64,000 bases of DNA from Azolla caroliniana (taxonomy: Eukaryota; Plantae; Polypodiophyta): positions 11,160,001 to 11,224,000 of the forward strand of contig JBHGNT010000018.1 in the NCBI GenBank assembly GCA_043228905.1, given 5' to 3'. Positions 4,729 through 39,801 of this stretch are shown one piece after another. The translations under genes and the position numbers were made by a program. A model generated the notes under the pieces. It made no database searches. It was not told where the DNA came from and saw nothing but the letters and a program-made list of their open reading frames with translations. The stretch's first letter is position 1; every line of letters begins with the position of its first letter.

Positions 4729-4796
4729 TCCACCCCCACCAAACCGCGCATCCACCAGCATGCGCCAGAGACGGGTAGATACCGAAGAAATCGGCT

Positions 4797-7578: not shown

Positions 7579-8267
7579 TGACAGGAACTTCACGTTCCCG
7601 ATGAACAACGCTCGGCCACAACCGAGTCTAAAATCAAACACAGAAAACGAGTAATGAAACGCGCGACACAAAGGAGAGAAGAGTACACGGGATGTTTAAC
7701 GTGGAAAACCCTGAGAGGGAAAAACCATGGGAGTCCACAAACTCCAAACTATCACTATGTCACAATGATTACAACAGTGAGCTCACGGAGGCAACGACCT
7801 CGTGCTCACAATCTTCGCCATAGGCGGCGGTTACAACAGAGGCAACGACCTCTTTCTCTCTCTGTACACTGTTACGCGCTCTCTATTCTTGCACCAACAA
7901 GAATGACAACAACTGTTTCATCTATTTGCCCTAAGTCATATTTATACTAATATGACTTTTCGGCTATTTACAAATATAGCCTCGATGGACTCTCAGAAAC
8001 ATATTTACGAATATGTCTCTTCATCCGGTGAGCACTTCTCACCGGGCCTTCACCATCCGGCTCTTGCCGGGTACTCCTCATCCGGTTCCCACCGGGTCTT
8101 CCGTAGCCGGGTACTCTTCATCTGGTTTCACATCGGGTCTTCACCATCCGGCTCTTGCCGGGTACTCTTCATCCGGTTCCCACTGGGTCTTCTATAGCCG
8201 GGTCTACCACATCCGGTTTTGGTACTGTTCTTCTCACTTCCCATCCGGAGGGACCTGTTTCCTAACA
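7579..8267 (-). repeat. 3' LTR of copia H with ~50-bp tandem subrepeats (8041-8215)
   Basis: TGTTAGG...GTCA termini on the minus strand; homologous to LTRs 55031-55636 and 59739-60379. Confidence 0.85.
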
Positions 8268-8276
8268 AACTCCCCC

Positions 8277-11200: not shown

Positions 11201-12258
11201 GTGTCGGACATCCTTCAACAGCAGCTTGCATCCGGTTGGTGTTGTCAACCACACGTCTCCTATGCCGACAATTCGGCATGTACCTTCATTCCCCATCCGG
11301 ACACAGCCGTGATCACCGACTGAGTAGGATGAGAAGCATTTCCGGTTCGAGGTAAGGTGGAATGACTCTCCAGAGTCGACCACCCAGGTCATCTCATCGC
11401 CGGCAAGGTTTAGCTCACTCTCCTCGGTGATGAGCATCAACTCTTCTTCACTTGCCGTGATTGCCGCCGTTCCCTTCCGGTCCGACCCCCTCCGGTCTTT
11501 ACCATTCCGGTCTGGTGTCCGCTTCGAATCGGTACCGTCGGTTTCCTTGTCTTTTCGGAAATGCCGACAGTTCTTCTGGAAGTGTCCTGGCTTGCCACAA
11601 TAGAAGCAAGTAGGCCTCCCCCTTGACTTTGACCGTGTCCCTGACTTTTCCCGGTTCTGGGGACTACGGTTCCTATGTCTTCCGCGTTCCGATTCGGTAA
11701 GGAGCGCTTTGGAGTCGGAGCTCGTATCCTTATCTTTCCGACGCGCCTCCTCATCTAGCAAGCTCGACTTCACTCTTGCTAGGGATAACTGTTTCCCTTT
11801 CGGCCTGGCGTTGCCCAAAGTGACAACCAACGTCTCCCAGCTATCCGGGAGGGAACCGAGCAAGAGTAGCGCTAGTACCTCATCAGCGAGAGGCACTTCC
11901 AATGAAGTTGCTTGGTGTATCAGCCCCTGGAAGGCATTCATGTGCTCCGCCATGCTGGAGCCATCTTGGTACCGGAGTCTTACTAGCTTCCGGAACACCG
12001 AAACCTGATTAACAACATTTTTGTTTTGAAACATAATGTCAATCTTCTCCCAGAGCTCATGAGCCTTGCTCTCTTCATTGAAGTTGTTGTATAGGCTCAT
12101 GTCGATGAAGCACCGTATGTACGCTGTTGTCTTCATGTGCATCACCTCCCATATCGTGGCGTTGATCTTGTCCGGCCTCTTGTCCCCGAACTAAACCGGC
12201 AACCAAAGATCTTTAACCACGAGCATGTCCCTCATCTTTGACTTCCATACTGAATAGT
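8277..12258 (-). pseudogene. gag-pol: Gag-Pol polyprotein of copia H, disrupted
   Basis: CFYCGKPGHFQKNC knuckle, WVVDSGES protease, RADNGGEY integrase, QLDVKTTFLHG and YVDD RT, YCDSQTAI RNase H. Frameshift near 9970; stops at 9148 and 8431. Confidence 0.92.
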
Positions 12259-12260
12259 TC

Positions 12261-12845
12261 CCATCGAACTAACCGGAACGGTCCGGTCTTCTCTAAGGTC
12301 TTCACCGATCACCTTTTGCAACTCGCCCAAGGTGTCGTCAAAAGAGACCGCCTCCACGACACCGCTGATTTTTTCGTCGGGGGAGAGGACTCTGCATCCC
12401 CTGAGCCGCTCCTCCGCTCGCTTCCTCTACCGGCCCATGACGCCGGCTATAGTACAACCTCCATTTCCGGCGAACCAAAACTTCCTACCTACTGTACATG
12501 TGTGGGGTTCTTCCGGTACGTCCGGACTACCGCGGCCCCATGCCTTGATAGCCCTCTCTAAAAATCCCCTCGGTTGTTGTCGCCGAGGGTCTCGCGATTC
12601 CTCTCATGGTTCGGACATACAATCATGAGCTGGACGGAATGCCAACCGTCTTGGCTCTTAATGTGCGTGTACACCGAACCGTTGTCCATCACCTTCGTCT
12701 CCATGCATGCTGTCGTAATGTACGGTTCGCCGAGAATCACCGGGTGCGAGGATGTTTCCTGCACGAAGAAATGTTGATCTATCTCGACGTCACCGATCTT
12801 TACGCGTACATTCGAGCACGCACCATGAACTCCTCCGTAGCACGC
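12261..12845 (-). pseudogene. Gypsy A protease C-terminus, frameshift site and start of pol frame
   Basis: FFVQETSSHPVILGEPY...RETLGDNNRGDF* (12558-12764), followed in the -1 frame by LERAIKAWGRGSPD. Confidence 0.85.
12502..12567 (-). promoter_or_regulatory. Putative -1 ribosomal frameshift element, copy A
   Basis: G GAT TTT TAG followed by the stem GGGCTATC/GGTAGTCC, with loop TGGGG able to pair with downstream CCCCA. Confidence 0.75.
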
Positions 12846-14461
12846 TGTCGTGAAGAAAACCGTCCCTTAGCGTAATCGGTGCATAGCGTGCGTGAACCGG
12901 CTCTTCACGCGTGCGCGCCCTTTAATGTATATAATAGAGAATTAGGTACAAAGGTATATCCTAGGTAGTTAGATTCGGTAGGTAGGAAGTTAATGAGGGA
13001 AACGGCTCCCTTCTTGAAGCTATAAAAGAGAGGGAGATGCGGGGAGAAGAGGGCATTATTATTTATTGAGGAGGACGAGGTGCTGTCGGACCGAAACCGA
13101 ACGCTTCTCCTCTGTTCGTTCTCCATCGCTCTTCTCTGCAGGTTTTCGGGAGGCTCGCGCTGCTTCGAGGAACGCCCGTGTGCTTCTGGCAGCACCTCCA
13201 TCCTATCCCCTTTCGTGCGCAGACGAGCAGGCATCGGCATCTGTTCGCCGGCCTGTTTGGTTGTAACCGCTCGCGTGCTCTATTGTTTATTTGTCATTCA
13301 TTAATATACAAACATTCGTGTCTCTCTGTCTCTGTGTCCATTCGTGTCTTCTGCGTTGACAGGGCCGTGTCCCTGTGTTTCTTTGCTCATACGTAACCGA
13401 GAGTCTCTCTCTTTCTCTTTCCCCTTCTATCACCTGCTCTTTCTTCTATCACCTGCTCTTCTCTGCAGGTTTTCGGGAGGCTCGCGCTGCTTCGAGGAAC
13501 GCCCGTTGTCGTGAAGAAAACTGTCCACAAGCGGAATCGGTGCACCGGAGCGTAGGAACCGGCTCTTCATGCATGTACGCCTTATGTTGTACATAGAAGA
13601 TCCTAGGTAGGTAGATTCGGTAGGTAGGAAGTTAATAGGAAACGGCTCCTTCGTTGCCTATAAAAGGAGGGAGACGAGGAGGGGGGGAAGAGAGCGCGGA
13701 TTCAGAGAGGACGAAGTGCTGTCGGGTTATCGGTCGAAGGCTTCTCTCTCTTCCATACTCCGTAGCTTCTTTCTGTGCAGGTTTTCGGGAGGCTCGCGCT
13801 GCTCTGAGGAATGCCCGAGTGCTTCCGGCAGCACCTCCAACCTACTCCTTTCTTTCTGAGCGTTTACGAACAGGCATCGACATCTGTTCGCCGGCCTGTT
13901 CGGTTGTAACCGACTTCGTGCTTCTTGTTGTTTGTCTCTGTTAATATATACATACATACCTTCGTGTCTCTCTGTGTCGGTTTCCCGCTCGCGTCTTTGT
14001 GTCGAAGGGTCGTGTCCCTATGGATCTACGCTCGCACGTAGTGGGTCCCTTCCCCTCTCCTTTCTCTCTTGCTCTTCGGTACAAGGCCCCCGAAGTCCCG
14101 CCTCATTCCATGCATCCGCGAGGAATACGTCGACACCGTGTGCTTCCGGCAGCACCTCCATCCTATCCCCTTTCGTGCGCAGACGAGCAGGCATCGACAT
14201 CTGTTCGCCTGCCTGTTCAGTTGTAACCGCTCACGTGCTCTGTTGTTTATTTGTCATTCATTAATATACAAACATTTGTGTCTCTCTGTCTCTGTGTCCA
14301 TTCATGTCTTCTGCGTTGACAGGGCCGTGTCCCTGTGTTTCTTTGCTCATACGTAACCGAGAGTCTCTCTCTTTCTCTTTCCCCTTCTATCACCTGCTCT
14401 TTGGTTCAAGACCCCGGTGGTCCCGCCTCGTTTCTCCACGCACGCGGGTAGTAACACGACA
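12846..14461 (+). repeat. 5' LTR of gypsy B with an internal ~330-bp tandem duplication and a nested solo LTR
   Basis: 12846-13440 matches 25793-26390. Segment 13130-13440 recurs as 13456-13506 plus 14140-14400. Confidence 0.85.
13507..14135 (+). repeat. Solo LTR of the copy-C subfamily
   Basis: TGTCGTGAAG...GTCGACA, homologous to the reverse complement of 15406-16040; perfect TSD CCGT/CCGT. Confidence 0.9.
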
Positions 14462-14465
14462 TCTT

Positions 14466-14483
14466 TGGTGAACCCGACGTGAA
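14466..14483 (+). promoter_or_regulatory. Primer binding site, tRNA-Trp
   Basis: TGGTGAACCCGACGTGAA, 18-nt complement of the tRNA-Trp 3' end. Confidence 0.9.
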
Positions 14484-14505
14484 CAAGGCAGCAGAGGAGC
14501 AGAAG

Positions 14506-15405
14506 ATGAGGAGTTCGAAGTACGGCTCCTGGAGAAATACGGGCTGGATGACGCGCTTCGGCTTTCGAAGTGGGGCTTCATGGAGTGGGTAGAGTTCCCC
14601 AACAAAGGAAGAAATGCGTCGGTACTCCTCCGGGAGTTTGAGGAACACTTTGCGTGCCTTTCGGCGCTCGATCGGACCGTTCTGGACACAAGTCGTGTCC
14701 TACTATTTGTCAAATCGGTTGACGCACGGGATCGGGAGCAAGTGGGCTCCTTACTGGAAACCGAAGACGGGCTAACGGCCGACTGGACCGCGGTAAACAG
14801 AGTCTGCGGCCGTTTTGACAAGCGGTGGGAGTGGGCTGATACAGGGGCGGGTCCTATCGCAGCAAGGAAGCTCGAACCGATACCACAGGCGCGAAGGGAA
14901 GAGACCCAGGAGTGGCTCGAAACTGATTCGGCTTCGACCGGCGTGGTCAGAGGCTCGTTCGGGGGAACAGCTTTGGAGGAGTTGACACGGGTGGTAAAGG
15001 ATCTCCAGATCGCCCAGGCTCAGAGGGAAGGCGGCGAACAGGCTCGTGACCGACGGCCTCCGGCAGGAAATAGGTGCATGTGGTGCGACGAGGTCGGCCA
15101 CATCCGGAAAGACTGCGGGGATTTTGCAGAGGCCTTGAGAAGCCGGGTAGTGTACCTGTGGGAAGGTCGGGTGCACGCCAACGATACCCGGAGGGCCCTG
15201 AACCGAAACGACGGGCGAGGAGGAATGAAAAGGCTGATGGAAGAGGCGGCGGCCCGGCACGCGGAGACCGTCCACTACTCGGCGTCAGCCGGTATTCGGG
15301 TCGGAGGCAGCGAGGCCCGGAAGGAGAGCAAAGCCAGGTTCTGGCCGACGATGCTGGAAGGCCTCGCCGGTGCCCGACTAAGGAAAGATGAGGTGGACCG
15401 CGCGG
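14506..15405 (+). pseudogene. gag: gag of gypsy B, 5' part (internal deletion; interrupted by C)
   Basis: ORF 14580-15668 with the CMWCDEVGHIRKDC zinc knuckle; the frame resumes at 21294 (DRA|EKRV). Confidence 0.85.
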
Positions 15406-16040
15406 TGTCGAGGTACTCCTCGCGGATGCGTGGAATGAGGCGGGACCTCGGGGGTCTTGTACCGAAGAGCAAGAGAGAGAGGAGAAGGGAACCCACTACG
15501 TGCGAGCGTAGATTCACAGGGACACGGCCCTTCGACACAAAGACGCGAGTGGGACAGCGACACAGAGAGACACGAATGTATGTATGTATTAACAAAGACA
15601 AACAACAAGAACACGAAGTCGGTTACAACCGAACAGGCCGGCGAACAGATGCCGATGCCTGTTCGTAAACGCACAGAAAGAAAGGAGTAAGTTGGAGGTG
15701 CTGCCAGAAGCACTCGGGCATTCCTCAGAGCAGCGTGAGCCTCCCGAAACCTGCACAGAAGAAGCTATGGAGTTTGGAAGAGAGAGAAGCCTTCGGCCCA
15801 CAATCCGACAGCACTTCGTCCTCTCTTACTTCGCGATCCCTTCCTCCTCCTCGTCTCCCTCCTTTTATAGGCAAGAAGGGAGCCGTTTCCTATTAACTTC
15901 CTACCTACCGAATCTGCCTACCTAGGATCTTCCATGTCCCTAATTCTCTCCTATGTACAACACAAGGCGTTCGTGCATGAAGAGCCGGTTCCTATGCTCC
16001 GGCGCACCGATTCCGCTCGTGGACGGTTTTCTTCACGACA
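15406..16040 (-). repeat. 3' LTR of gypsy C
   Basis: Near-identical to 20659-21293. Confidence 0.95.
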
Positions 16041-16113
16041 TCCGCCCCCAACTAACCGCGCATCCACTGGCATGCGCCAAATTGAGTTGGGACAGAGAAA
16101 ACCGGTCCAGCCT

Positions 16114-18498
16114 TTATTCCCCGCCCGTCGGTTCTTCTTCGGTTTCGGATCGCTCGTCGTCCCGGTCCAGGTTATCCGAATCCGGCTCGTCGTCGTGACG
16201 CTTCTTGAACGCTTTGATCCGCTTCCCAGCTACAGGTATCGCCATTCTCGTGCCGTCGAGTTCCGCCAGATGGTACGTCCCGTTGTTGTTGGTGCTTTGT
16301 ACCACGTAAGGCCCGAACCACCTTCTTGCGAACTTCCGTGTCGCTCGGTGCTGGTTGTCGAGGCTGCTGTCGTAGACTAGCACCCAGTCGCCTTCCTTGA
16401 CCTTCTTCGGTTGGAGCCGGTGCGTTCGGTCGAACCGGGATTTGTTCCTCATCCTTGCTTCCCGAAGCTTTCCCGCAGCCTGCTCCACGTCTTCCGGCCT
16501 TCGCTCGAGCTGACGTATGCGCGCCGCCAATAGTTCCTCCCGGCTCATCTCGTCTCTCCAGTCCATGGTTGCCCATGAGAAGATTGTACTTTCCATCGGC
16601 ATGATCGGCTTCTGCCCAAACATGAGCTCTGCCAACATGAATCCGGTTACCGAACTGTGCGTAGTTCGGTCAGCCCACAACGCGTAAGGCAGCAGCCGCG
16701 GCCAGTTCCCGACTTGACCTCCGCATGCCCGAACTAACGCCTTGACGATCGGTCCGTGTCCGCGCTCCACCTTTCCATTCGCCTCCGGATTGTATGCAGT
16801 GGTAAGCGAAACCATGCCGCCTTCGTCATCAAACCTCGCCCTCGAAAGCATGTCGGCCATGGCATTGTCCTTTCCGGAAATGTGCCGTATTTCCGGGTCC
16901 AAGGACTTGATGTACGCTATCCACCTGAGCATCGCCAGGTCCGGTGTCGCGCATCTGGAAATCATGCCGAGAATTGGCAGGCAATCCGTCTCGATAATCA
17001 CTTCTGTCCCGATCAAGTAGTCTTTGTCGGCCTTTACTGCCGAAACGATACCCCAGCTACAATCGGTTTTCATCGCGGAGATGGCTTCTACCTTTGCCGG
17101 AGATGGCTTCCGGCCATATGGTCCACATAGGTGTCCAACCACCAGGATTTCTGATTGCCCGAAGGCCGATTTCTCCCCGGAGAAGGTGAGCCTCACACCC
17201 TCTAGCCTTTGTAGCACCCTCTCGCAGTCGATGTGTGTTGCCACGAATCGCCGGCATCCGTCCGGCCCGAGTGTCTCGTCCTTCTCTTCCACCGGGCACC
17301 CCTTTATCGGGATATCGTCTAGAAACGGCATGGTGATGTCCGGGATGCAATCCCTCAGTACTTTGTTCATTGCATTCACCATGTGGGCCACCGAGTTGGT
17401 CCCTCCTTGTGGCAGGGTACACATTCGCACTAGGCCGAGGGGAGTTCGCATCGTCGTAATGTCTTTGCTCTCCACGGCTAGCTGGAACTGGTCGTACCCC
17501 GAGTACAGATCTCCAACCGAGTAAATCGACCTTCCGGCGAAGGCCTCCGCGAACTCGTCTATGGTCGGTCCGATTCCTGCGTTCCGAATGGTCACTCTGT
17601 TGACCGGCTGCAGGTCTTGAATGAAGCGCAATGTTCCGTTTTTCTTTGGTACGGTAAACCATCGGTTCGAGTATGGGGCACTTGACGGTTCGAGAATGCT
17701 CATATCGACTTTTTGCCTCAATAGCTCCATCAACTTCGGGATGTGAGCTCTCGGTACTAGAATCGGCTTGAGATTCCACGACACATGCGGTACCGTGAAT
17801 ATCACCATCAGCTCCACGATCGTCGGGTCTACGCACCCGATCTCTTCCGGTGAGAATGCGAAGGCTTTCCCGTGCCTTCCGAGCATCCTCCGAAACCGGT
17901 CTTCCTCCGCCGGCAGTAGGAACCCGCCCCCACCGATTTTGAGCTCCCGGAGCGTTCCGTCGGTGAAGGTGTGTTCTATGCAGACCGGATCTCGCAAACT
18001 GGGGTCCGACGCAACCCCTCTGATCCAGGACTCGCTGCCCTCCGGTAAGGGTGCCGCGACTGGCCTTACCTTCCGGTCCACAGTCTTGTACTTTGTGCTA
18101 ACTCGGGCCATCCGATCCGACCCGAGCCCTCGACTGAAGTTCGCGATGACTTCGTACATCTCTTTGGAACATACTGGTATCGTCCGGTCTTCGTTAAGGT
18201 CTTCTCCGGTTACCTCCCTCAGCATTCCCAAGGTGTCGTCGAAGGAGACCGCCTCCACGGCTCCGCTGATTTCCTCGTCTGGGCCGAGAACTCCGCACGC
18301 TCGAAGTCGCACTTCCGCCCTTGTCTTTTCTCAGCCAATGATGCCGACTATTATTTACCCTCCGTTGTTGGAGAAGCAAAACTTCCTACCTATCGTACAG
18401 GGTTCCTTCGGTTTCGGTTCTATCGTACAGTCGTGGGGTCTTTCCCGAGTGTCCGGGCTGTCTCGGCCCCATGCCTTGGCAGCCCTCTCTAAAAATCC
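16114..18498 (-). CDS. pol: pol frame of gypsy C (RT, partial RNase H, partial integrase), reached by -1 frameshift; two in-frame internal deletions
   Basis: 732-aa ORF 16114-18312 that is open upstream to the slippery site; PFLDDIPIKG RT motif; deletion junctions KTDCS|WGIVSAV and GGMVS|LTTAYNPE. Confidence 0.85.
18433..18498 (-). promoter_or_regulatory. Putative -1 ribosomal frameshift element, copy C
   Basis: G GAT TTT TAG, stem GGGCTG/CAGCCC, loop TGGGG with downstream CCCCA; the pol frame is -1 relative to gag-PR. Confidence 0.78.
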
Positions 18499-20615
18499 TC
18501 CCGGTTCTCACCACCGAGGGATTCGCGGTTTCGCTCGTGGTTCGGCCGCACCGTCAGAAATTGGACCGAATGGCGCCCGTCCTGGCTTTTGACCCTCGCG
18601 TAGGCCGAACCGTTGTCCAGCACCTTGGTCTCCATTCGCGCCGCCGTGATGTATGGTTCCCCTAATATGACCGGGTGCGAGGATGTCTCCTGTACGAAGA
18701 AGTGTTGGTCAATCTCGACGTTGCCGGTCTTGACTCGCACATTCGGGCAGGCCCCATGCAGTTCCTCGGTGGCGCGAGTCGCCGCTCGTATCTTCCACCC
18801 GTGCTTGGTGTTGATCGGCCACTTTCCCTTCTTATAGAAGTCCATGGACATTAGGTTTATTTCCGAACCGTGGTCCACCAGTGCTACCACCGGTTCCTGA
18901 ACATCTCCGATCTTTACCGGGGTCTCCGTGGTCGCTCGGGCCCAGTGCGGCCTTGAATAGTGGCTCTCCGCCCACTCATCTTCCAGCGCCATGTTGTCGA
19001 TGTGCGTCGTCCGCACCTCCACCGGTCTTTCCGGTTCCGTCTCCGTCGACAGCCTCCTCCGTTTCACCAGGTCCACAATGGAGTCGTGGAACTCCTTCTT
19101 GGCGATCCCTAGCACCTCCCGTAATGACAGCTCCACTTTGCTGTCGAGGATCCGTTCTTCTAGGACCTTTCGTAGGTCCATGGTCCTTTCTATTTCCGTC
19201 CCCTGTCGGTATCCGTCCTTCTTGGGGTTATCTTGCGCGCCGGACCCACCGGCGTCATTCCGTCGTTGCCCGAATCGGGTCTCGTACTGTTGTGAGGGCC
19301 CGGCTGCTTTGGCTTTCCCCACTCGTTTGTCTTCTACCAGAGCCTCGTAGTTCCGGCAGGCGGCTTCTACAAAGCACGTCTTCTCCTCGACCGGGTCGCT
19401 CCACCCGGTTATTTCGCGGACCCGTCTCTCAGCGCGGTCCGCTTCATCTTTCCTCAGCCGTGCGCCGGCGAGGCCTTCCAGCATTGCCGTCCAGAATCCG
19501 TCTTTGCTCTCCTTTCGGGCCTCGCTGCCCCCGACCCGAATGCCGGCCGACGCCGAGTAGTGGATGGCCTCCACGTGTCGGGTCGTTGCCTCTTCCATCA
19601 GTCTCTTCATACCTCCTCACCCGTCGTTCCGGTTCAGGGCCCTTCTGGTATCGCCGACGTGCACCCGACCTTCCCACAGGTACACCACCCGGTTCCTCAA
19701 CGCCTCTGCGAAATCGCCGCAGTCCTTCCGAATGTGGCCGACCTCGTCGCACCACATGCACCTGTTCCCTGCTACCGGCTGTCGGTCACGAGCCGTTTCG
19801 CCGCCTTCCCTTCGAGTCTGGGTGATCTGGAGATCCTTTATCGCCCGCGTCAACTCCTCCAGCGCTGCTCCTTCGGACGAGTCATTGACCATGCCGATCG
19901 GAGCCGACCCGGTTTCGAGCCACTCCCGGGCTTCTGCCCTTCGCCCTTGCGGTGCCGGTTCAAGCCTCCTTGCTGTGACAGAGCCCGCACCGGTCACCCC
20001 GTTGTCAGCCCATTCTCGCCGTTTGTCGAAACGGCCACAGACTCTCTTAACCGCAGCTCAGTCGGTCGTCAGCCCGTCTTCGGTTTCTAGCAAGGAGCCG
20101 ACTTGATCCCGGTCTCGCTCGTCCACCGACTTGACGAACAGTAGGACCCGGCTCGTATCCAGAACGGTTCGGTCAAGCGCCGAAAGGCGCACAAAGCGTT
20201 CTTCGAACTCCCGGAGAAGTGCCGACGCGTTTCTTCCCTTGCCGGGGGACTCCACCCACTCCATGAAGTCCCGTTTCGAAAGCCGGAGCGTGTCGTCCAG
20301 CCCGTATTTTTCTAAGAGTCGACCTTCGAACTCCTCCCAGGTACGGTTCTCCGCCCGCACCTTGAGCACCTCCGCATGGATGCTCGGCATTGCCACTCGT
20401 GGGAACCCGGCAAGACGCCTCTCTTCCGGAATGTCCCGCATCAGCATTTCTGCCCCATAGGACGCCAAATACTTCGTGGCATCCTTTCCGCTGAACCGGC
20501 CGATCGTACCGACGACCGCCTCAATGGCTCTGTCGAGGGTGCCGGAGCCCTCGCGTGCGCTCAATATCCGATCCACTGCTGAAGGCATGGCGTCCGCAAG
20601 ATCCGACCCCTTCAT
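18489..20615 (-). pseudogene. gag: gag-protease ORF of gypsy C, two premature TGA stops
   Basis: ORFs ending at 20058, 19617 and 18489 are in one frame; CCHC knuckle; aspartic protease ALVDHGSEINLM...VILGEPY. Confidence 0.88.
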
Positions 20616-20658
20616 CTTCTGCTCTTCTGCCGCCTCCTTCACGTCGGGTTCACCAAGA

Positions 20659-21293
20659 TGTCGAGGTACTCCTCGCGGATGCGTGGAATGAGGCGGGACC
20701 TCGGGGGTCTTGTACCGAAGAGCAAGAGAGAGAGGAGAAGGGAACCCACTACGTGCGAGCGTAGATTCACCGGGACACGGCCCTTCGACACAAAGACGCG
20801 AGTGGGACAGCGACACAGAGAGACACGAATGTATGTATGTATTAACAAAGACAAACAACAAGAACACGAAGTCGGTTACAACCGAACAGGCCGGCGAACA
20901 GATGCCGATGCCTGTTCGTAAACGCACAGAAAGAAAGGAGTAAGTTGGAGGTGCTGCCAGAAGCACTCGGGCATTCCTCAGAGCAGCGTGAGCCTCCCGA
21001 AACCTGCACAGAAGAAGCTATGGAGTTTGGAAGAGAGAGAAGCCTTCGGCCCACAATCCGACAGCACTTCGTCCTCTCTTACTTCGCGATCCCTTCCTCC
21101 TCCTCGTCTCCCTCCTTTTATAGGCAAGAAGGGAGCCGTTTCCTATTAACTTCCTACCTACCGAATCTGCCTACCTAGGATCTTCCATGTCCCTAATTCT
21201 CTCCTATGTACAACACAAGGCGTTCGTGCATGAAGAGCCGGTTCCTATGCTCCGGTGCACCGATTCCGCTCGTGGACGGTTTTCTTCATGACA
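20659..21293 (-). repeat. 5' LTR of gypsy C
   Basis: Followed on the minus strand by the tRNA-Trp PBS (20638-20655). Confidence 0.95.
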
Positions 21294-22240
21294 ACGGAGA
21301 AGCGGGTCCAGGAGGTAACCGGGTGGAGTAACCCGGTCGAAGAAAAGACGGGTTTCGTCGAAGCAACTTGCTAGAACTACGAGGCTCTGGTTGAAGACAA
21401 ACAAGTAGGTAAAACCGGAGGGGCCGGACCCTCACAGAGATACGAAACCCGATTCGGGCCGAAACGGAACGAGGCCGGTGAGATCAGTGCCCAGGATAAC
21501 CACAAGAAGGGCGGATACCGGTTGGGCATGGAGATCGAAAGGACCATGGACCTACGAAAGTTCCTAGAAGAACGAATCCTCGACAGCAAGGTGGAACTGT
21601 CGTTGCGGGAGGTGCTCAGAATTGCCAAGAAGGAGTTCCACGACTCCATCGTAGACTTGGTGAAGAGGAAGAGGCTGTCGACGGAGACAGAACCGGAAAG
21701 GCCGGTGGAGGTGCGGACGACGCACATAGAGGACATGGTGCTGGAAGACGAGTGGGCGGAGAGCCACTATTTGAGGCCACACTTGGCCCGAGCGACCACG
21801 GAAACCCCGGTGAAGATCGGAGATGTTTTCAGGAACCGGTGGTGGCGCTGGTGGACCACGGTTCGGAAATAAACCTGATGTCCATGGACTTCTACAAGAA
21901 GGGGAAATGGCCGGTCAACACCAAGCACGGGTGGAAGATACAGGCGGCGACGCACGCCACTGAGGAACTACACGGGGCCTACCCAAACGTGCGAGTCAAG
22001 ATCGGCGACGTCGAGATAAACCAACACTTCTTTGTGCAGGAGACGTCCTCACACTCGGTCATACTAGGAGAACCGTACATTACGGCAACACGGATGGAGA
22101 CCAAGGTGCTGGACAACGGGTCGGCTTACGCGAGGGTCAAGAGTCAGGACGGGTGTCATTCGGTCCAGTTCCTGACGGTGCGACCGAACCATGAGCGAAA
22201 CCGCGAGTCCCTCGGTGGCGAGAACCGAGAGGATTTTTAG
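21294..22240 (+). pseudogene. gag: gag 3' part and protease of gypsy B
   Basis: ERILDSKVELSLREVL, ALVDHGSEINLM, ends GENREDF*; one stop and a frameshift near 21828. Confidence 0.88.
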
Positions 22241-22296
22241 AGAAGGCTGTCAAGGCGTGGGGCCGCGATAGTCCGGACACTCCGGGAAAACCCCAC
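22231..22296 (+). promoter_or_regulatory. Putative -1 ribosomal frameshift element, copy B
   Basis: GGATTTT 22231-22237 then TAG; 7-nt spacer; stem 22245-22251/22267-22273; loop GTGGGG 22257-22262 complementary to CCCCAC 22291-22296. The -1 frame is open into ORF 22471-23154. Confidence 0.8.
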
Positions 22297-25200
22297 AAAT
22301 GTACGATAGAGGCGAAACCGAAGAAACCTTGTACCATAAGTAGGAAGTTTTGTTTCTCCGACAACGGAGGGTGTACGATAGTTGGCGTCGTTGGCCAAGA
22401 AAAGACAAGGGCGGAAGAGCGACTTCGGGCGTGCGGAGTTCTCGGGCCCAGCGAAGAAATCAACGGAGCCGTGGAGGCAGTCTCCTTCAACGATACCTTG
22501 GGAATACTGCGAGAGGTGGTCGGAGAGGGCCTTAAAGAGGACCGGACGATACCGGTTTGTTCAGAAGAGATGTACGAAGTCATCGCGGACTTCAGTCGAG
22601 GGCTCGAGTCGGATCAGATGGCCCGGGTTAACATGAAGTACAAGACTGTGGACCGGAAGGTAAGGCCAGTCGCGGCACCCTTATTGGAGGGCAGCGAGTT
22701 GCGAATCAAGGGGGTCGCGTCGGACCCCAGTTTACGAGATCTGGCCTGCATAGGACACACCTTCACCGACAGAACGCTATGGGAGCTCAAAATCGGTGGG
22801 GGCGGGTTCCTACTGCCGGCGGAAGAAGACCGGTTTCGGAGAATGCTCGGAAGGCACGGGAAAGCCTTCGCATTCTCACCGGAAGAGATCAGGTGCGTAG
22901 ACCCGACAGTCGTGAAGCCGATGGTGATATTCACGGTACCGCATGTGCCGTGGAATCTCAAACCAATTCCGGTACCGAGAGCTCACATCCCGGAGCTGAT
23001 GGAGGTGTTGAGGCAGAAAGTCGATATGGGCATCCTCGAACCGTCGAGTGCCCCATACTCGAACCGGTGGTTTACCGTACCGAAGAAGAACGGGACGTTG
23101 CGCTTCATTCAAGACCTGCAACCGGTCAACAGAGTGACCATTCGGAATGCATGAATCGGACCAACGATAGACGAGTTCGCAGAGGCCTTCGCCGGAAGGT
23201 CGATCTACTCGGTCGGTGATCTGTACTCGGGGTACGATTAGTTCCAACTAGCCGTGGAGAGCAGAGACATTACGATGATGTGGACTCCTCTCGGCCTAGT
23301 GCGGATGTGTACCCTGCCACAAGGAGGGACAAACTCGGTGGCCCACATGGTGAATGCGATGAACAAGGTGCTGAGGGATTGTATCCCGGACATCACCATG
23401 CCATTTTTGGACGACATCCCGATCAAGGGATGTTCGGTGGAGGAAAAGGACGAAACGATCGGACCGGACGGATGCCGGAAATTCGTGGCGACACACATTG
23501 ACGACTGCGAGAGGGTGTTGCAGAGGCTAGAGGGTGCGAGGCTCACCTTCTCCGGGGAGAAATCGGCCTTCGGGCAATCAGAGATCATGGTCGTCGGACA
23601 TCTATGCGGACCGTATGGCTGGAAACCGTCTCCGGCTAAGGTGGAAGCCATCTCCGCAATGAAGCCCGACTGTAACTCGGTCACGAAGGAGCATGCGCGT
23701 TCTACCACATATGGATCCCGCATTACGCCCACGTTGTCGAGCCGCTATACGGGTTGCTGAAAAAGGGGCGAAGATTCGAGTGGCGAGACGAGCATACGGA
23801 GTCGGTCCGAAAGATGAAGGAGGCTCTTGCTGCAGCTCCGGCACTCTGGAAGGCTGTCTACGAGAAAGGCACTCCCATCTACATAACGGTAGATACAAGT
23901 CCGACCGGGATCGGATGGGTCGTCAACCAAGAAGACGAGGATGGCATTTGGTTCCCAATCCGGTTTGGCGTGAAGGTCCTCAGTGAGCGACAGCGAGGAT
24001 ACGCCCAGGTTAAACGCGAACTCTGGGGTATCGTTTCGGCGGTGAAGGCCGATAAAGACTATATGATCGGGACAGAGGTGATTATCGAGATGGACTGCCT
24101 GCCGATTCTCGGCATGGTTTCCGGATGCGCAACCCCAGACCTGGCAATGCTCAGGTGGATAGCGTACATCAAGTCCCTGGATCGAGAAATATGACACATT
24201 TCCGGGAAAGACAATGCCATGGCCGACATGCTTTCGAGGGCACGATTCGACGACGAGGGCGGCATGGTTTCAGAGGATGAGGAAGTCGGCGTGGACTTCT
24301 TCGAGGCGGCTTACGTGACAGCCGAGGGGGGGAGCACTCCGGCGCTTAACGATTTCAACGAGAGCAAGTACGACGGGGAGTGGCTACAGATTGGGGGATT
24401 CTAGAACGATGACGCCGGACGCGTCATGGACAAAGAATGAGGCCAACTGGATCCGGAAGAAAGCATACCGATTCTTTCTCCGGGAAGGATACTTGTGGAA
24501 GCACCCGAAGAAGAGAAACGGCATCCCGCTCCGAGTAGTGGCGATGGAGGAGGAACAGGAGGAGTTGCTGAAGGCCTACCACGACAACCCCTGGGCTGGA
24601 CACCGTGGGACGTGGGCCACATTCGAGAAACTAAAGGGGAAGTACTGGTGGCCGGGACTATACCGGGACGTGCATCGGTTCGTGAGAACTTGTGAGAGGT
24701 GTCAGATACACTCCATAGTCCGACATCGGGATGAGCTTCACCCTACATACCCTCCGACCATCCACTTCAAATGGATGGTAGATTTGGTGACGATGCCGAT
24801 GGGCGTAGGGCAGATGCGATATCTGGTGCTGGCCCGGGAGGACCTGACGAACCAGGTGGAAGGCCGAGCCTTGCAGAACAAAACGACTACAGTCGTGTGT
24901 CGGTTCCTGATCGAGGACGTGATATGCTGGTACGGGTGCGTCGGGAAGATCGTGGCTGACCGCGGGGAGTTGGACGCCGAAGAAGCCGAGGAGCTGTTCG
25001 ACTGGTTAGAGGTCAAGCTCTCGCTCACCACAACGTACAATCCGGAGGCGAACGGGAAGGTGGAGCGCGGACACAGACTGATCGTCAAAGCGCTAGTCCG
25101 GGCGTGCGGAGGCCAGGTCGGGAACTGGCCACGACTGTTACCTTATGCCTTGTGGGTGGACTGGACAACCCACAGTTCGGTAACCGGGTTCATGCCGTCA

Positions 25201-25790
25201 GAGCTCATGTTCGGACAGAAGGTGATCATGCCGATGGAACAGACGATCTCCTCTTGGGCGACAGTGGACTGGAGAGACGAGATGAGCCGGGAAGAACTGC
25301 TAGCGGCGCGTATACGGCAACTCGAGCGGAGGCCAGAGGACGTGGAACGAGCGGCGGAGAGACTTCGGACGGCGAGGATGAGGAACAAAGCCCGGTTCGA
25401 TCGAACGCACTGGCTCCGACCAAAGAAAATCAAGGAAGGCGACTGGGTGCTAGTCTACGACAGCAACCTCGACAACCAGCACCGGGCAACACGGAAGTTT
25501 GCAAAGTGGTGGTTCGGGCCCTACGTGGTAATGAGCGCCAACGACAATGGGACGTATCACCTGGCGGAACTTGACGGTACGAGGATGGCGATACCGGTAG
25601 CAGGGAAGCGGATCAAAGCGTTCAAGAAGCACCACGACGGCGAACTGGATCTAAGAGGCCTGGACAGCGACAGCGAACAGTTCGAAACGGAGGATGAACC
25701 GATGGACGAAGAACTGGAACCTGGACCGGTTTTCTCCAACCAGAACCCAAATTTGGCGCATACCGGTGGATGTGCGGTTAGGTGGGGGTG
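22231..25790 (+). pseudogene. pol: pol of gypsy B: RT, RNase H, integrase with stops and frameshifts
   Basis: ORFs 22471-23154, 23254-23760, 23754-24194, 24219-24404 and 24391-25800 tile RT-RH-INT (GHRG, CERCQ, WMVD, VADRGE, NGKVER, WFGPY). Confidence 0.92.
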
Positions 25791-25792
25791 GA

Positions 25793-26448
25793 TGTCGTGA
25801 AGAAAACCGTCCCTTAGCGTAATCAGTGCATAGCGCGCGTGAACCGGCTCTTCACGCGTGCGCGCCCTTTAATGTATATAATAGAGAATTAGGTACAAAG
25901 GTATATCCTAGGTAGCTAGATTCGGTAGGTAGGAAGTTAATGAGGGAAACGACTCCCTTCTTGAAGCTATAAAAGAGAGGGAGATGCGGGGAGAAGAGGG
26001 CATTATTATTTATTGAGGAGGACGAGGTGTTGTCGGACCGAAACCGAATGCTTCTCCTCTGTTCGTTCTCCATCGCTCTTCTCTACAGGTTTTCGGGAGG
26101 CTCGCGCTGTTTCGAGGAACGCCTGTGTGCTTCTGGCAGCACCTCCATCCTATCCCCTTTCGTGCGCAGACGAGCAGGCATCGGCATCTGTTCGCCGGCC
26201 TGTTCGGTTGTAACCGCTCGCGTGCTCTATTATTTATTTGTCATTCATTAATATACAAACATTCGTGTCTCTCTGTCTCTGTGTCCATTCGTGTCTTCTG
26301 CGTTGACAGGGCCGTGTCCCTGTGTTTCTTTGCTCATACGTAACCGAGAGTCTCTCTCTTTCTCTTTCCCCTTCTATCACATGCTCTTTGGTTCAAGACC
26401 CCGGTGGTCCCGCCTCGTTTCTCCATGCACGCGCGTAGTAACGCGACA
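25793..26448 (+). repeat. 3' LTR of gypsy B
   Basis: TGTCGTGAAG...ACGCGACA; matches 12846 onward. Confidence 0.93.
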
Positions 26449-26460
26449 ACGCGTCGCCGA

Positions 26461-28543
26461 TGTCGTGAAGATTTTTGGCAATGGTGTGAAAATCACATAA
26501 AACGTACAAAATCGAGTATGAATCACATAAAATAATAATAGTGAAGTATCTAAGTACAAAATGATGGAGGTCTTCAAGAGCTTTCGAATGCACTTTATTA
26601 CATGAGAAACGAACAAGTAGATGTCAAGATATGAGGGTATAAAGTTTGTGAAAGGAAAAGAGAAAACTGTGAGATATCCCACATAGGCACGACAAATACG
26701 GCTCTCATCATGACTATTACCCTATGCCTTGTGGGCCGATAGAATGACACACAACTCAGTGACAGGGTATATGCCGACGGAGCTTATGTATGGACAAAAG
26801 CCTCATGGGTAGTGATACCGTGGGAGAACGAGATGAGCCGAGAAGAGTTATTAGCGGCACAGATAAGGCAACTTGAAAGAAGACCTGAAGATCTAGAAAA
26901 AGCGTGAAAGATGATGGAGGCAGCCCGAGTAAAGAACAAAGTTCGGTTCGACAACACGCATCGACTTCGTCCAAAGAAGATTGAAGAAGGAGATTGGGTG
27001 TTGGTTTACGACAACAGCCTTGACAATCAACACAGTACAACAAGGAAGTTCGCTAGAAGATGGTTCGGGCCATATGTGGTGACAAGTGCCAACGCTAATG
27101 CCACATACCACCTTGCAGAGCTAGACGGATCAAGGTTGGCCGTACCCATTGCGGGAAAAAGAGTAAAGATTTTCAAGAAAAGACAAGACGAGGATCCTGA
27201 CCTCGATCACCTCGACGATGAACATAATAGGACGGATGTAAATGAAGACATGGAGGAATCTAATTGATCACCGTAGCCGAAATCTCACTTTCTCTCTTCT
27301 TGGCACGTACCGGAGGACGTGCGGTTGGTGGGGGTGGATGTCGTGAAAATTTTCGGCAATGGTGTGAAAATCACATAAAACGTACAAAATCTAGTATGAA
27401 TCACATAAAAAAATAATAGTGACGTATCCAAGTACAAAATGATGGAGGTCTTCAAGAGCTTTCGAATGCACTTTATTACACGAGAAACGGACAACTAGAT
27501 GTCAAGATATGAGGGTATAAAGTTTGTGAAAGGAAAAGAGAAAACTGTGAGATATCCCACATAGGCACGACAAATACGGCTCTCATCATATATAAGGTAG
27601 AGCAAAAGCTATTATCTTTGTGTCTATGTGTGGAGCATAGAGAGTTCAAGGTAACTTGAACTAAGAGTGGAGGTGGCCTAGCTACTCGTAAAGGGTTTTG
27701 GCCAACCAAAACCGGACCGGCGGCAGCCGGCAAAGCGACGGTGGCATCCGGCGAGGGCGAGGTGATGGCATCCGGCGGCCACCGGTAACCAGCGACATCC
27801 GGCAGCGCGGCGGCAACCTGCATCCGACGGAAGCCACTAGTAACCGGCAGTGCACCGGCATCCGACGGCAACCGACGAGGCGGTGGCATCGGGCGCCGAC
27901 ATCCGATGGCATCCGGCGAACCGGCGTCCGACGACTAGATAAATAAATATATAAATATATAAATATATATACACACACATATATATATATACATATACAT
28001 ATACAAGGAGGGCAAGTAAAGATTCAAACCTTGCACCTCCAAGTTAGGAGTCAATTGGCCTACCACGAAGCCATGACATTTAGTTGAATTTATATTTCTA
28101 TCATTGTACTTTTACATGTAAATTCTCATACATGAGAGCTAAAATGAGTGACATGGTTATCATGCACCATAGTAATACATGAGCGCCAAATGGCAAACAT
28201 GCATTTTATGCATGTCTTGTACCCTCACATGCATCATATGCATGAGAGCATCTATAAAAGAAGGGATGAAAAAGAAGAAGGGTTAGGTTTTTTTTTGGTT
28301 ATGAAATTAAGAAGAAGAAAATTTGTTGTCGAATTGATCGTGTAACTTGTTTCTTAAATCTAAAGATAAAATTTCAATCAATCTCTCTCAATCGAAAGTC
28401 AAGCATTTAATCTCAACTTCTCTCTTTCCCAATCTATCTTAAATATTTCCTCACTAAAGCTTGTACCGACTTCGAATCCTTCCAGTCCAGAACCCCGGCG
28501 GTTCCGCCTCGCAATCCGTGCTTAGTGACGGATCTTCACGACA
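26461..28543 (+). mobile_element. Ty3/gypsy copy D (tRNA-Trp family, AT-rich LTR variant), large internal deletion
   Basis: Truncated 5' LTR 26461-26711 fused to the integrase C-terminus (26712-27267), PPT, full 3' LTR 27339-28543, TSD CCGA/CCGC, 12-bp terminal inverted repeat TGTCGTGAAGAT/ATCTTCACGACA. Confidence 0.88.
27339..28543 (+). repeat. 3' LTR of gypsy D (1.2 kb) containing a GC-rich GGCATCCGGCG-type repeat block (27713-27935) and a TA/CA microsatellite (27945-28005)
   Basis: First 250 bp duplicate 26461-26711; TATAAAAG at 28253; ends CACGACA. Confidence 0.85.
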
Positions 28544-28964
28544 CCGCGCGTATCGTCCACCCATGCTTGGTGTTGATCTGCCATTTACCCTTCTTGTAGA
28601 AATCCATCGACATCAGGTTGATTTCGGATCCATGGTCTACCAAGGCCACCACCGGTTCCGAAACGTCGCCGATCCACACAGGGGTTTCCGTAGTTGCCCT
28701 GGTCCAATGCGGCTTGGCGTAGTGGCTTTCCGCCAACTCGTATTCTAGGGCCGTGTCTTCTAAGTGCGTAGTCCGCACCTCCACCGGCTTCTCCGGTTCC
28801 GGCTCTGTTGAGAGCCTCTTCTGCTTCACCAAGTCTACGATGGAGTCGTGGAACTCCCTCTTGGCGATTCCTAGCACCTCCCGCAACGACAACTCCACTT
28901 TACTGTCGAGGATCCGCTCTTCAAGGACCTTCCGTAGGTCCGTTGCTCTCTCAATTTCGGTGGT
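28544..28964 (-). pseudogene. gag: Gypsy A gag-protease fragment between D and E
   Basis: TEIERATDLRKVLEERIL...ALVDHGSEINLM...GWTIRA; joins 38368 and 26460. Confidence 0.88.
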
Positions 28965-29422
28965 TGTTACCCGAACCCGGACAGTCAGTTTTACCGAACA
29001 AGTGGGAAAGCGTCGAAAACGGAGTCGGTTCGGATCGACTGTTCGGATCAATGACTCAGCAGTAAACGAAGAGAACTAAGTTAGTTAGATAATTTTGTAA
29101 TTCTTGATAGTAAGTAGGAATAGTTCTTGATGAGAAAAGACCTTCGGTATACCTATAAAAGGGAACCGAAGGCATTGTAAGAAAGGTCGTTTTATTTAGT
29201 AATATAAGTTTAAGTTAGGAATATCCTGTACGAATTCTGTGTTCTTTCTATTGTCTATGTTCTTAAGTGCAAGTTTTCCTAATTTATAACTAAGTAACGA
29301 TCACGGTAATTACCGATTAATATAGTATAATTCCGTTCGTAAAACACAATTCCTTGTTAGAACGTTGAGTAGCAACGTTCACTCTTCTGTATCGGTAGTA
29401 GTTAGTAATTAGCCGATTAACA
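28965..29422 (+). repeat. 5' LTR of element E
   Basis: TGTTA...TAACA termini; TATAAAA at 29154. Confidence 0.95.
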
Positions 29423-29433
29423 CAGAAGAATTT

Positions 29434-29446
29434 TGGCACGCCCGGT
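29434..29446 (+). promoter_or_regulatory. Primer binding site, probably tRNA-Arg
   Basis: TGGCACGCCCGGT, 11 nt after the LTR; resembles the TGGCACGCCC tRNA-Arg PBS of Tat-like elements. Confidence 0.7.
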
Positions 29447-29481
29447 TACATCTGCAATTAAGCAGAGAACAAATCGAATGG

Positions 29482-32400
29482 ATGTCGTATGAAGAGGAGT
29501 CACCGGTCAGTTGTAAGCGCCCTCATACAAGGTCAGTTACGAAGGTAGTGCAGCAAGCGTTCATTGCGCAAGAACAGCCGGAATCAAGCACAAAGTGGTC
29601 GAAACTTCCTGACTTATCCGATCAAGTACCTTCAGACGAAAAACAGATGGAAGAGGTATCATTTTACGACATTTGGGACGATATGCCTTATACTTATTCT
29701 AAGTTCCGGGAAGGAACAGATGCGGAAGCACATGTTAGGGATTTCTTAACGACATGGGAGATTAACCATGGAGCTCAACGATTGTCGGCAGATGCCGAAG
29801 ATAAGTCAAAAATCGCTGAGTTCGTCTTATCATTAGACGGATATTCCGCCAATTGGTTTGCGCAGAACGGTCTTCAAGGATTTCCATCCTTTGAAGTGTT
29901 AACTAGTAAATTTTTACAATTATTTCATCAACAAATTCTGCAGAAGGATTTGATTGCGCAATTTTATGCGTTATATCAAGAAAAAAATGAAACAGTATCT
30001 CAGTTTGTGATACGATTTCAGAACTTACAGCTTCAGATTTCAAGGCCGATTCCGGATAAGGAATTAAAAGAAGTCTTTCTAGAAGCTGTAAAAGAACCAT
30101 TAAGGACGACATTGAAAGTGTTCGATTTTCGAAATCAGACTATCGAACAAGTAATTGATAAAGCAATAGAAATGGGGGGACCACCGGTCAATGTTCAGAG
30201 TATGGACATTTCGGCATTACACCGTACATTACCAACAATAGAGGAGTTACAATTTCGACAAGCAGTTCAATGCACCACTTGTTTAAATACGGGGCATTCG
30301 ACAATTGAATGTACGTTAAGAACACATTGTACAATATGTCATTCAAAATTACATTCAGTAGAACAATGTGAATATAATCTGCTTAATAAGACTACGGCGT
30401 CAGTACGACAAATTTTTACTGACAATGGTTACCAAAATAACACTAATCTGTTCAATGGTTATCTAAATAATAATTTTTCACAAAATCAGCAAAATGTACA
30501 ACAGAATCCGGTTCTACAGCCAAATCAGATCTTTTCACAACAAAATATGCAACCCACTCAAGTGACTCAAGCATTTCAACCAGGTTTTGCTCAATCCAAC
30601 CCACCATTCGTACAGAATCCGAATCAATATTTTCAACAAAATAATCAAAGTTTCCAACAAGGTAACCCACCATTTCAAGGGTTTCAACAGAACTGTCCGA
30701 ATGTGCAACCGAATTCTACATTTCAACCAAATCCGGCATTTCAACCGGGTAATATGACCTTTCAACATAATACTCAAACCGTTCCACAAAATAATCAAAT
30801 GTTTCAACAGAGTAATTTTCCGCCAAATCAGGAGTTCGGGATACCACACAATGTAGCACAACCAAATGATAATACTGAACAATTTAGGCAGAATCGGTAT
30901 AAAAACAAGAGATTTTACAAACCAAAAGCTACACGTCAATACCAACAAAACCCGAGTGGTAATGAAGAGCAGCAATTTAATAACGGCCAATTTGCACATG
31001 GAGAGACCAGTGCAACATTTGTACCCACTTGTTATATTTGTCGACAACTAGGCCATTATGCTAATCAATGTCCGGTTAAAGGAAAGGGTCCAGCAGTTAA
31101 TATGGTAATACCGGAAGTTCAGCAAGTAACGACACGCAGCAAAAGCAAACAATCAGAGTGGGAAATTCAGGAAGAAGTTCGGAAGGCGGCAAAAGAATGG
31201 GTGGACGAAGCAAATCAAAGTAATGTGAATCGAATGTTACAAGACAATAACATTGACCAGGACATCGCTGTACAACAGTCATTGGGGAATAAGGAACAGG
31301 AAGAAACTTGGAAACTGTTGGCTGATTGCCAAGTGTCATTGCCACTTACGGGCTTACTTAAGTTAGTACCAAGGTTTACAGAAAAAGTGGCAGCATTAAT
31401 TGCATATAAAGGTTCCGAACAAATAGCAGTACACTACAATCAGCCAAGTAATAACCCTTCGATCATGGATGAACAGAATCCGTCGATTAAGGTAATACTT
31501 TACGGGCAAGAAATCGGAAATGTGATTATAGATGGAGGCTCGGGTGTTAATGTGATTAACAAAACTACATGTGAAAAACTGGGAATCACGGAATGGGAAG
31601 CATGTCCGTTTTGGTTACGAATGGCAGATACAAGTACGGTACGACCGATTGGTTTGCATCGACAACTGGATGTAATAATCGGGGGACACAATTTTCAGAT
31701 TTCGGCAGTAATTTTGCAGTTAGAAACACATGGAGCATACCCCTTGTTATTGGGGAGACCATGGTTAAAGACAGCTAATATTAAACAAAATTGGAAACAA
31801 AATGTGCTAACATTTAGGAAAGGAAAAACTAAGGTCAGGATTCCGACGCACAACAAAGTGACAACAAGCAAACAGAGTTTACCTGTACATGCAGAAGCAG
31901 TTAATATGATGGAAGGATTGGACGAGGAAGAAGAAAGTCAGTATTTCAATGATAATCAGAAAATCATCCCTCTATTTGAGGTAGATATTTTGCAAGCATT
32001 AACACCATATGTAGACTCACACGAAGAAGTGCCAATAGATGAGCAAACAATGAAAGAAATACGAATGCAACAAGAAGCTACAGATAAGGAAATGAAGGTA
32101 TCTCAGAGAGTGCAAGCCTCAGCATTGGAGGAGATCGATTTGGCAGGAGTACAGGATGCTGAAAGAAAAACAGTCTTGATTGCTAGAGATTTGGCGGAAA
32201 ATGACAAACGGACATTAACAACATTACTATTACAATATAAAGATGTTTTTGCATGGTCGTTTGACGATATGAAAGGTCTGGATCCCGCTTTTTGTCAACA
32301 TCAAATCAATTTGCATAAAGATGCAAAGCCAGTACAACAACGCAGGTACAGGTTGAATCCGAATTATGCTATCAAAGTAAAAGAAGAAATCGATAAACTC

Positions 32401-34974: not shown

Positions 34975-35103
34975 AAAAAAGAAAAAAAAAGAAAAAAGAA
35001 AAAAGAAGCTAACTAACTAACTCACTCAATAGTTCTTGTCAAATGCAGAAATACAATCTTGCCATAACAGTCTGAATCGACTATAAATAGAAAGAGGAAT
35101 TGC

Positions 35104-37866: not shown

Positions 37867-37910
37867 GCGTGGGTTCGCTGGACAAGGTCCTGGCCCACGG
37901 ACGTGCCAAG

Positions 37911-38367
37911 TGTTACCCGGACCCGGACAGTCAGTTTTACCGAACAAGTGGGAAAGCGTCGAAAACAGAGTCGGTTCGGATCGACTGTTCGGATCAATGA
38001 CTTAGCAGTAAACGAAGAGAACTAAGTTAGTTAGATAATTTTGTAATTCTTGATAGTAAGTAGGAATAGTTCTTGATGAGAAAAGACCTTCGGTATACCT
38101 ATAAAAGGGAACCGAAGGCATTGTAAGAAAGGTCGTTTTATTTAGTAATATAAGTTTAAGTTAGGAATATCCTGTACGAATTCTGTGTTCTTTCTATTGT
38201 CTATGTTCTTAAGTGCAAGTTTCCTAATTTATAACTAAGTAACGATCACGGTAATTACCGATTAATATAGTATAATTCCGTTCGTAAAACACAATTCCTT
38301 GTTAGAACGTTGAGTAGCGACGTTCACTCTTCTGTATCGGTAGTAGTTAGTAATTAGCCGATTAACA
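37911..38367 (+). repeat. 3' LTR of element E
   Basis: Near-identical to 28965-29422. Confidence 0.95.
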
Positions 38368-39779: not shown

Positions 39780-39801
39780 CTTCTGACTCCTTTGCCGCCT
39801 G

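Follow-up and report, generated by a model that had tools for sequence, protein, structure and literature searches.

Nested elements and a repeated cassette in the window

The stretch of Azolla caroliniana DNA that we analyzed, 64 kb in length and referred to here as the window, contains three nested copies of one Ty3/gypsy retrotransposon family, designated elements A, B, and C (Table 1). Later insertions have disrupted element B as well as its host: its gag is interrupted by element C and its 5' LTR by a solo LTR at 13507-14135 (TSD CCGT). Another gypsy element, at 28965-38367 on the forward strand, has LTRs that are 98.9% identical and a single Gag-Pol frame of 1,853 codons, followed by an extra ORF of 618 codons (35068-36924) that has no Pfam match. 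The region at 43180-43280 contains a run of 100 N within a copia RT frame.

The sequence GGATTTTTAG is found exactly three times within the window, at 22231 (+), 18498 (−), and 12567 (−), and these exact matches place the cassette in copies B, C, and A as originally predicted. In all three copies, Gag and protease (PR) form one ORF that closes with DF-stop at G_GAU_UUU_UAG. RT, RNase H (RH), and integrase (INT) are encoded downstream in the −1 frame or its broken continuation, and the peptide GFLE(K/R)A.KAWGR is read through in that frame in each copy. The −1 frame had been described as open in B and C, which is true of B, whereas in C it closes after 45 codons; in copy A, it is open for 44 codons. 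Likewise, the spacer given as 6-7 nt is 6 nt, and copy B has lost the first pair of stem 1. The stem arms and the pairing of TGGGG with CCCCA are present in the window copies as previously described.

Table 1. Positions of the three elements, their cassettes, and associated features in the window
Feature	Position	Strand	Remarks
Element A	4111..40439	−	oldest host in the nest; interrupted by multiple later insertions
Element A LTRs	4111-4728 and 39824-40439	−	93.9% identical
Cassette, copy A	12502..12567	−	same cassette as in copy B
Element B	12846..26448	+	TG...CA ends, TSD ACGC
Primer-binding site, element B	14466..14482	+	complementary to the tRNA-Trp 3' end
Element C	15406..21293	−	pol with internal deletions
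Element C LTRs	15406-16040 and 20659-21293	−	99.5% identical
Cassette, copy C	18433..18498	−	same cassette as in copy B
Protease domain closing Gag-PR, copy B	21776..22237	+	predicted retropepsin fold, D-H-G motif; modelled on the copy C equivalent
Slippery heptamer G_GAU_UUU, copy B	22231..22237	+	kept across families
Linker-RT-RNase H-integrase, copy B	22237..25800	+	−1 frame; 305 codons open, then indel-broken
0-frame stop UAG plus 3 nt, copy B	22238..22243	+	6-nt spacer
Stem 1, 5' arm, copy B	22244..22255	+	8-bp core and variable upper 4 bp
Loop 1, copy B	22256	+	loop 2 = 0 nt
Stem 2, 5' arm GUGGGG, copy B	22257..22262	+	
Stem 1, 3' arm, copy B	22263..22274	+	
Loop 3, copy B	22275..22290	+	16 nt
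Stem 2, 3' arm CCCCAC, copy B	22291..22296	+	
3' LTR, element B	25793-26448	+	

A retropepsin-like domain upstream of the stop

The original prediction placed the cassette after the protease. The 154 residues before the stop have a weak Pfam match (E 0.009), and a sequence search of the PDB with the protease found nothing. However, a structure model based on the copy C equivalent (18492-18953, −), built from a 20-row alignment (pLDDT 79), matches Ddi1 and retroviral proteases in a fold search with E about 6e-6. According to the model, the region preceding the stop adopts a retropepsin fold, in agreement with the predicted placement. Its catalytic motif is D-H-G in 17 of the 20 alignment rows and D-S-G in the other 3, the usual motif being D-T/S-G.

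Frame, heptamer, and spacer in relatives

The cassette is highly repeated in the 523-Mb A. caroliniana genome. A 34-nt pattern covering its 5' part has 1,198 exact matches genome-wide compared to 0 for a reversed control, and this repetition is not due to chance. Among 90 top-match copies from three DNA searches, three of them the window's own, the 10-mer is kept in 84 and the stop in all 90; because the copies were picked by similarity, retention of the 10-mer shows consistency rather than selection. Outside the window, Gag and protease share one frame of about 750 codons. When the pol frame of 30 copies was scored by BLAST, 25 were −1, three were 0, one was +1, and one had no pol match; the four with another frame still close at DF-stop, with breakage further on. 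Another family in this genome (L237-L245), the third, has its own −1 cassette with G_GAU_UUU and different stems.

More distant relatives were recovered in a metagenome scan, in which 148 loci were confirmed and 80 kept. Protease and RT domains are both present in 65 of these, with the RT in the −1 frame in 61 and in the +1 frame in 4. Two loci (L116 and L160) are +1 only via damage and were left out of the −2 count described below. Of 147 loci, the 100 whose RT stretch is unbroken were clustered into 29 families: 24 are −1 with a 6-nt spacer, two are +1/−2 with a 5-nt spacer, and three were unplaced by our rule. The heptamer in the 24 placed −1 families is G_GAU_UUU (21 families), G_GAU_UUC (2), or G_GGU_UUU (1), and the spacer is 6 nt in every one of them, while the three bases upstream of the heptamer and the letters of the spacer vary. 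The Gag-PR stop in relatives may be UAG, UAA, or UGA, or may lie further downstream, even inside stem 1, indicating that the stop is not part of the signal. Families that share the frame, heptamer, spacer, and covarying pseudoknot described below have proteases 45-98% identical to that of the window's family.

In database protein searches, the named relatives are from a liverwort and a fern, which suggests that the host is a seed-free plant; no relatives were found in viral contigs. Among the 120 Pol homologues listed, the metagenome-style gene calls are without a protease, and the fused forms are eukaryotic gene models.

One explanation for the separation of Gag-PR from pol is decay: a frameshift mutation could have spread among non-autonomous copies that relied on an in-frame master for their mobilisation, with the structure serving some other role in the RNA, such as packaging. 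The window copies are indeed broken, and one distant database protein, P0129, is an exception in which a single frame spans the Gag part, protease, and RT. (P0129 is a single database member, and its integrase end looks broken.) However, families whose synonymous distance is saturated, and whose pol dN/dS is 0.10-0.13, have the same split, and the distance separating the structure from the in-frame heptamer is fixed. Furthermore, protease and RT in one frame, the arrangement that the original prediction had named as evidence against itself, were found neither in the 65 metagenome loci nor among 300 protease matches from the A. caroliniana genome, where the longest open frame is 894 aa. Decay is already largely excluded, and we consider it very improbable.

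A covarying pseudoknot is predicted downstream of the heptamer

The cassette is predicted to fold into an H-type pseudoknot with a stem 1 of ~12 bp, a 1-nt loop 1, a stem 2 of 6 bp, and no loop 2. Loop 3 is mostly 11-16 nt in relatives, reaching up to 24 nt, and its sequence is unconserved. Support for this structure comes from a MAFFT alignment of 31 rows, made up of 27 of the 29 families and 4 added sequences, that was not fitted to the structure. Two-sided changes occur at 15 of the 18 pairs, extending the stem covariation previously noted in the window copies to the wider clade, and 82% of cells are paired compared to about 40% with slid partners. The 8-bp core of stem 1 is nearly always paired, and the upper four pairs hold in just 17-22 of the 31 rows. 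The loop pairs with its own downstream arm at a mean score of 16.1, versus 9.5 for shuffles and 12.7 for the arms of other families, and own-arm pairing reaches a p value of 0.05 or less in 21 of the 31 rows. On a 29-row tree, stem 1 has 13 compensatory events compared to 1.4 for re-paired columns; the corresponding values for stem 2 are 9 and 1.9, a result favoured by picking the register in each row to maximise pairing.

Two further statements about the structure were revised by comparison across families. The invariance of TGGGG and CCCCA holds within the window's family, whereas across the clade the two covary. We rejected the suggested small third hairpin as a general feature of the cassette, as it competes with stem 1 and as loop 3 is free to vary between families.

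Compared with shuffles, the nested fold shows no gain in stability in the three window copies (z of −0.31, −1.30, and +0.11), and the structural support therefore rests on covariation rather than on folding energy. Rfam has no match to the cassette at E up to 10. Two loci were left out of the structure alignment, L141 because of damage and L167 because of its heptamer A_AAU_UUU and longer loop. The latter (L167:520-610) is the most divergent cassette, with a 6-nt spacer and a stem 2 of GUGAGU/ACUCAC. In the placed −1 families, the predicted stimulatory structure begins 6 nt downstream of the heptamer, within the norm of 5-9 nt for −1 signals.

Probable programmed −1 frameshifting in the main clade

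Programmed −1 frameshifting, the original interpretation of the cassette, is very probably correct, as suggested by the combination of frame, heptamer, fixed spacer, and a pseudoknot that covaries across families. The downstream ORF is in the −1 frame and overlaps the site in 61 of the 65 loci and in the window copies. The heptamer is in frame and permits tandem re-pairing in all 24 placed −1 families, GGA being a known variant of XXX. We propose that most ribosomes terminate at the Gag-PR stop, so that Gag-PR would be the main product and protease would be made one-to-one with Gag. A minority, stalled by the pseudoknot while GAU occupies the P site and UUU the A site, would slip by −1, with the tRNAs pairing anew on GGA and UUU, and give a minor Gag-PR-RT-RH-INT product. 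Reinitiation would be another way to express pol. However, a pol-frame AUG upstream of the site is absent in 24 of 24 −1 families, and the first one downstream is scattered from codon 1 to codon 109, which argues against reinitiation in this clade.

Alternatively, a short intron across the junction could be spliced from some transcripts, joining protease and RT as in Ogre elements, which set a precedent (PMC6317226). Gene models in the liverwort join both regions, and the sequence CAG|GU occurs within the −2 site described below. However, the liverwort models are predictions with joints at differing places, and GU is absent from the site in the −1 families. In two raw-read RNA runs, poly(A) reads from a relative span the −1 junction with no joint listed, which is weak evidence, the reads being of low depth and from both strands. 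Splicing would also leave the heptamer, the fixed spacer, and the covarying stems unexplained, and we regard it as improbable. Programmed −1 frameshifting would, on the other hand, explain why gene models invent introns at the protease/RT junction.

A sub-lineage with a +1/−2 layout

In two metagenome loci, long Gag-PR and pol frames stand in a +1/−2 relation to each other and meet at CAG_GUU_UUU. Using one of these loci as the query, we identified a young family with this layout in the A. caroliniana genome itself. Of 30 copies examined in this family, 28 have the +1/−2 layout, and the −1 frame closes immediately in all 30; the +1/−2 layout also occurs in 9 of 20 further stretches of the genome. 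Exact matches to the site number 83, and in 76 of them the −1 frame runs into UGA at once. With a looser pattern, GUU_UUU is kept in 84 of 88 matches, the remaining four being A_GAU_UUU (two) and A_GGU_UUU (two). Among 16 copies picked from the best matches, the pol frame is at least 1,152 codons in 12 and the LTRs are at least 99.3% identical in 14. Between the two −2 lineages, pol dN/dS is 0.10 at a dS of 1.0, indicating purifying selection. The group is monophyletic (100/100) and nested among −1 families by midpoint rooting only, with the third A. caroliniana family mentioned above as its sister (moderate support). It retains the pseudoknot, with a 5-nt spacer and the heptamer G_GUU_UUU. 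Thus, this sub-lineage is derived from −1 families and, as its young copies indicate, is still spreading. At least three copies in the genome (L231, L232, and L246) are deletion derivatives of the −2 family in which the cassette and pol are gone and Gag-PR runs straight into the integrase end and 3' LTR; they are possibly a non-autonomous Gag-PR family.

Pseudoknot-driven −2 frameshifting is, on balance, likely in this sub-lineage. The loss of one spacer base would both move pol into the −2 frame and shorten the spacer. The change from GAU to GUU would lengthen the U run, and we propose that this allows tRNA-Phe to re-pair two bases back. Slippage by −1 would mostly run into UGA at once. Shorter spacers favour −2 according to PMC3458567, yet because the shorter spacer and the frame change are here one mutation, the spacer is not independent evidence for −2. 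Several observations count against a −2 shift: a non-U first base abolished the −2 product at a U6A site in the same report (PMC3458567), P-site re-pairing at G_GUU_UUU is poor (GUU to AGG), the arterivirus site relies on proteins rather than on a pseudoknot, both −2 lineages have the upstream AUG discussed below, and four of the 88 looser matches deviate from GUU_UUU. RNA reads placed on the −2 family leave its junction uncovered.

Two other ways of producing Pol can be considered for the sub-lineage. In both −2 lineages, a pol-frame AUG lies 4-7 codons upstream of the site (at 4 or 7 codons), and Pol could be made by termination-reinitiation or by internal initiation at this AUG, leaving the pseudoknot as a relic or with another role. 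The position of the AUG differs between the two lineages, however, and such an AUG also arises from Asp codons, in the same frame, in 8 of the 24 −1 families. The 31-nt stem core shows 5 differences between the −2 lineages, of which 4 preserve the pair, while loop 3 has diverged, a pattern at odds with a relic. Pol made without Gag would also need another route into particles. We therefore view initiation at the upstream AUG as unlikely. Slippage by +1 on UUU_U would result in the same frame as −2, and pseudoknot-stimulated sites can yield +1 or −2 depending on the host, as seen for antizyme. The 7 of 83 matches that read UUU_UAC would permit +1 re-pairing of tRNA-Phe; in contrast, the other 76 read UUU_GAC, where +1 re-pairing would fall on UUG. 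Moreover, the U run grew on its 5' side, which helps −2 only. A +1 shift thus seems quite unlikely. Splicing in the sub-lineage is rated about as improbable.

If −2 frameshifting is used, a −1 signal may well have given rise to it through the deletion of one spacer base and one A-to-U change, with convergence on the arterivirus site without its proteins. The C-rich protein-binding stimulator of arteriviruses is not in the −2 cassette, where a predicted pseudoknot stem occupies that position, and any resemblance to arteriviruses would be one of mode of action only. In the accounts available to us, natural −2 frameshifting is known from few systems, namely phage Mu, arteriviruses, and Trichomonas vaginalis virus 1 (TVV1), and spacer control of −1 versus −2 has been demonstrated mainly with engineered constructs. 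For a eukaryotic retrotransposon to shift ribosomes by −2 in nature by means of a pseudoknot would be a rare kind of decoding. The presence of −1 and −2 sister families with a near-identical pseudoknot in one genome would offer a ready test of the mRNA-tension model for the direction of frameshifting. A natural switch with continued transposition would show that the direction of slippage can evolve by a single base.

Lineage assignment and comparison with known systems

By target-site duplication, primer site, and domain content, the elements of the window match a Phygy-like lineage of non-chromovirus Ty3/gypsy elements. Nineteen of 20 full-length stretches could be scored: all 19 have an NCGN 5' flank, and 13 have an exact 4-bp duplication. 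The primer site matches tRNA-Trp genes in four of four isolated loci scanned. (The tRNA-Trp 3' end has 63 genome matches in all, possibly including tandem tRNA-Trp genes, with clusters at C8:17.80-17.82 Mb (~1.2 kb spacing), C16:4.99-5.11 Mb, and C5:10.105-10.112 Mb; this tRNA is the primer of the abundant lineage described here.) A Pfam scan of two full Pol proteins found neither a chromodomain nor an extra archaeal-type RNase H, which excludes TatI despite its having the same TSD size and primer. Placement with Ylt1/Tcn1 was also considered, and the atlas's nearest cluster is mostly basidiomycete, but TSD and primer favour Phygy. Phygy as described in PMC6317226 has the same 4-bp NCGN TSD and tRNA-Trp primer site, and no chromodomain or extra RNase H. 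Its length of 7.7-10 kb covers the 7.9-8.0 kb of the −2 family and slightly exceeds the 7.0 kb of the window's family. Phygy is called species-specific in that paper, whereas the relatives identified here include liverwort and fern proteins.

The ORF layout of Phygy is listed as "not determined" in the REXdb paper (Neumann et al. 2019, PMC6317226), and a conserved −1 signal after the protease would fill this gap in the 2019 classification. The mechanism is known in kind; what the REXdb table (PMC6317226) does not list is its use downstream of the protease by a plant Ty3/gypsy lineage. A 2016 review, in its summary of a 2003 survey (Gao et al. 2003), gives only +1-frame layouts as known in plant LTR elements. 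The available text of PMC2864245 and PMC7466625 is without frameshift information. In full-text searches of the literature, we found neither a frameshift described for Phygy nor a retrotransposon described as shifting by −2, though subscription journals, Repbase/GyDB, and some REXdb supplements may mention one. The clade offers many natural variants of a compact predicted pseudoknot.

The separation of Gag-PR from RT-RH-INT is shared with the Tat elements Ogre and Retand. Unlike the window's lineage, these carry an extra RNase H and 5-bp TSDs, and their two parts are separated by an intron-like spacer or by one in-frame stop. A shift after the protease also has retroviral counterparts. Rous sarcoma virus encodes its protease in gag, and the alpharetrovirus gag-pol shift likewise follows the protease, as does the pro-pol shift of HTLV-1 in the descriptions available to us; in both cases the heptamer and the lineage differ from those of the plant Ty3/gypsy elements described here. 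The signal itself resembles the IBV type of H pseudoknot, with which it shares an X_XXY_YYZ-type heptamer (GGA here), a 6-nt spacer, and a long stem 1, which is 11 bp in the IBV −1 signal as given in PMC3458567. The heptamer G_GAU_UUU has been tested as a −1 site in an umbravirus and occurs near a stop in umbra- and dianthoviruses (PMC5009743). However, those viruses use a bulged stem-loop with a partner 4 kb away, in contrast to the compact local pseudoknot predicted here in a retrotransposon.

The closest parallels to the sub-lineage are the arterivirus nsp2TF site, which is also G_GUU_UUU and has an immediate −1 UGA, and the TVV1 site, C_CUU_UUU with an immediate −1 UGA (PMC4937337, PMC6675879, PMC3622925). 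As described there, both sites combine full A-site re-pairing with poor P-site re-pairing, as would the sub-lineage, and TVV1 likewise has −1-using sisters. In arteriviruses, the shift depends on nsp1beta and poly(C)-binding proteins and there is no structure, whereas the sub-lineage, if it indeed shifts by −2, would do so with a predicted pseudoknot 5 nt downstream.
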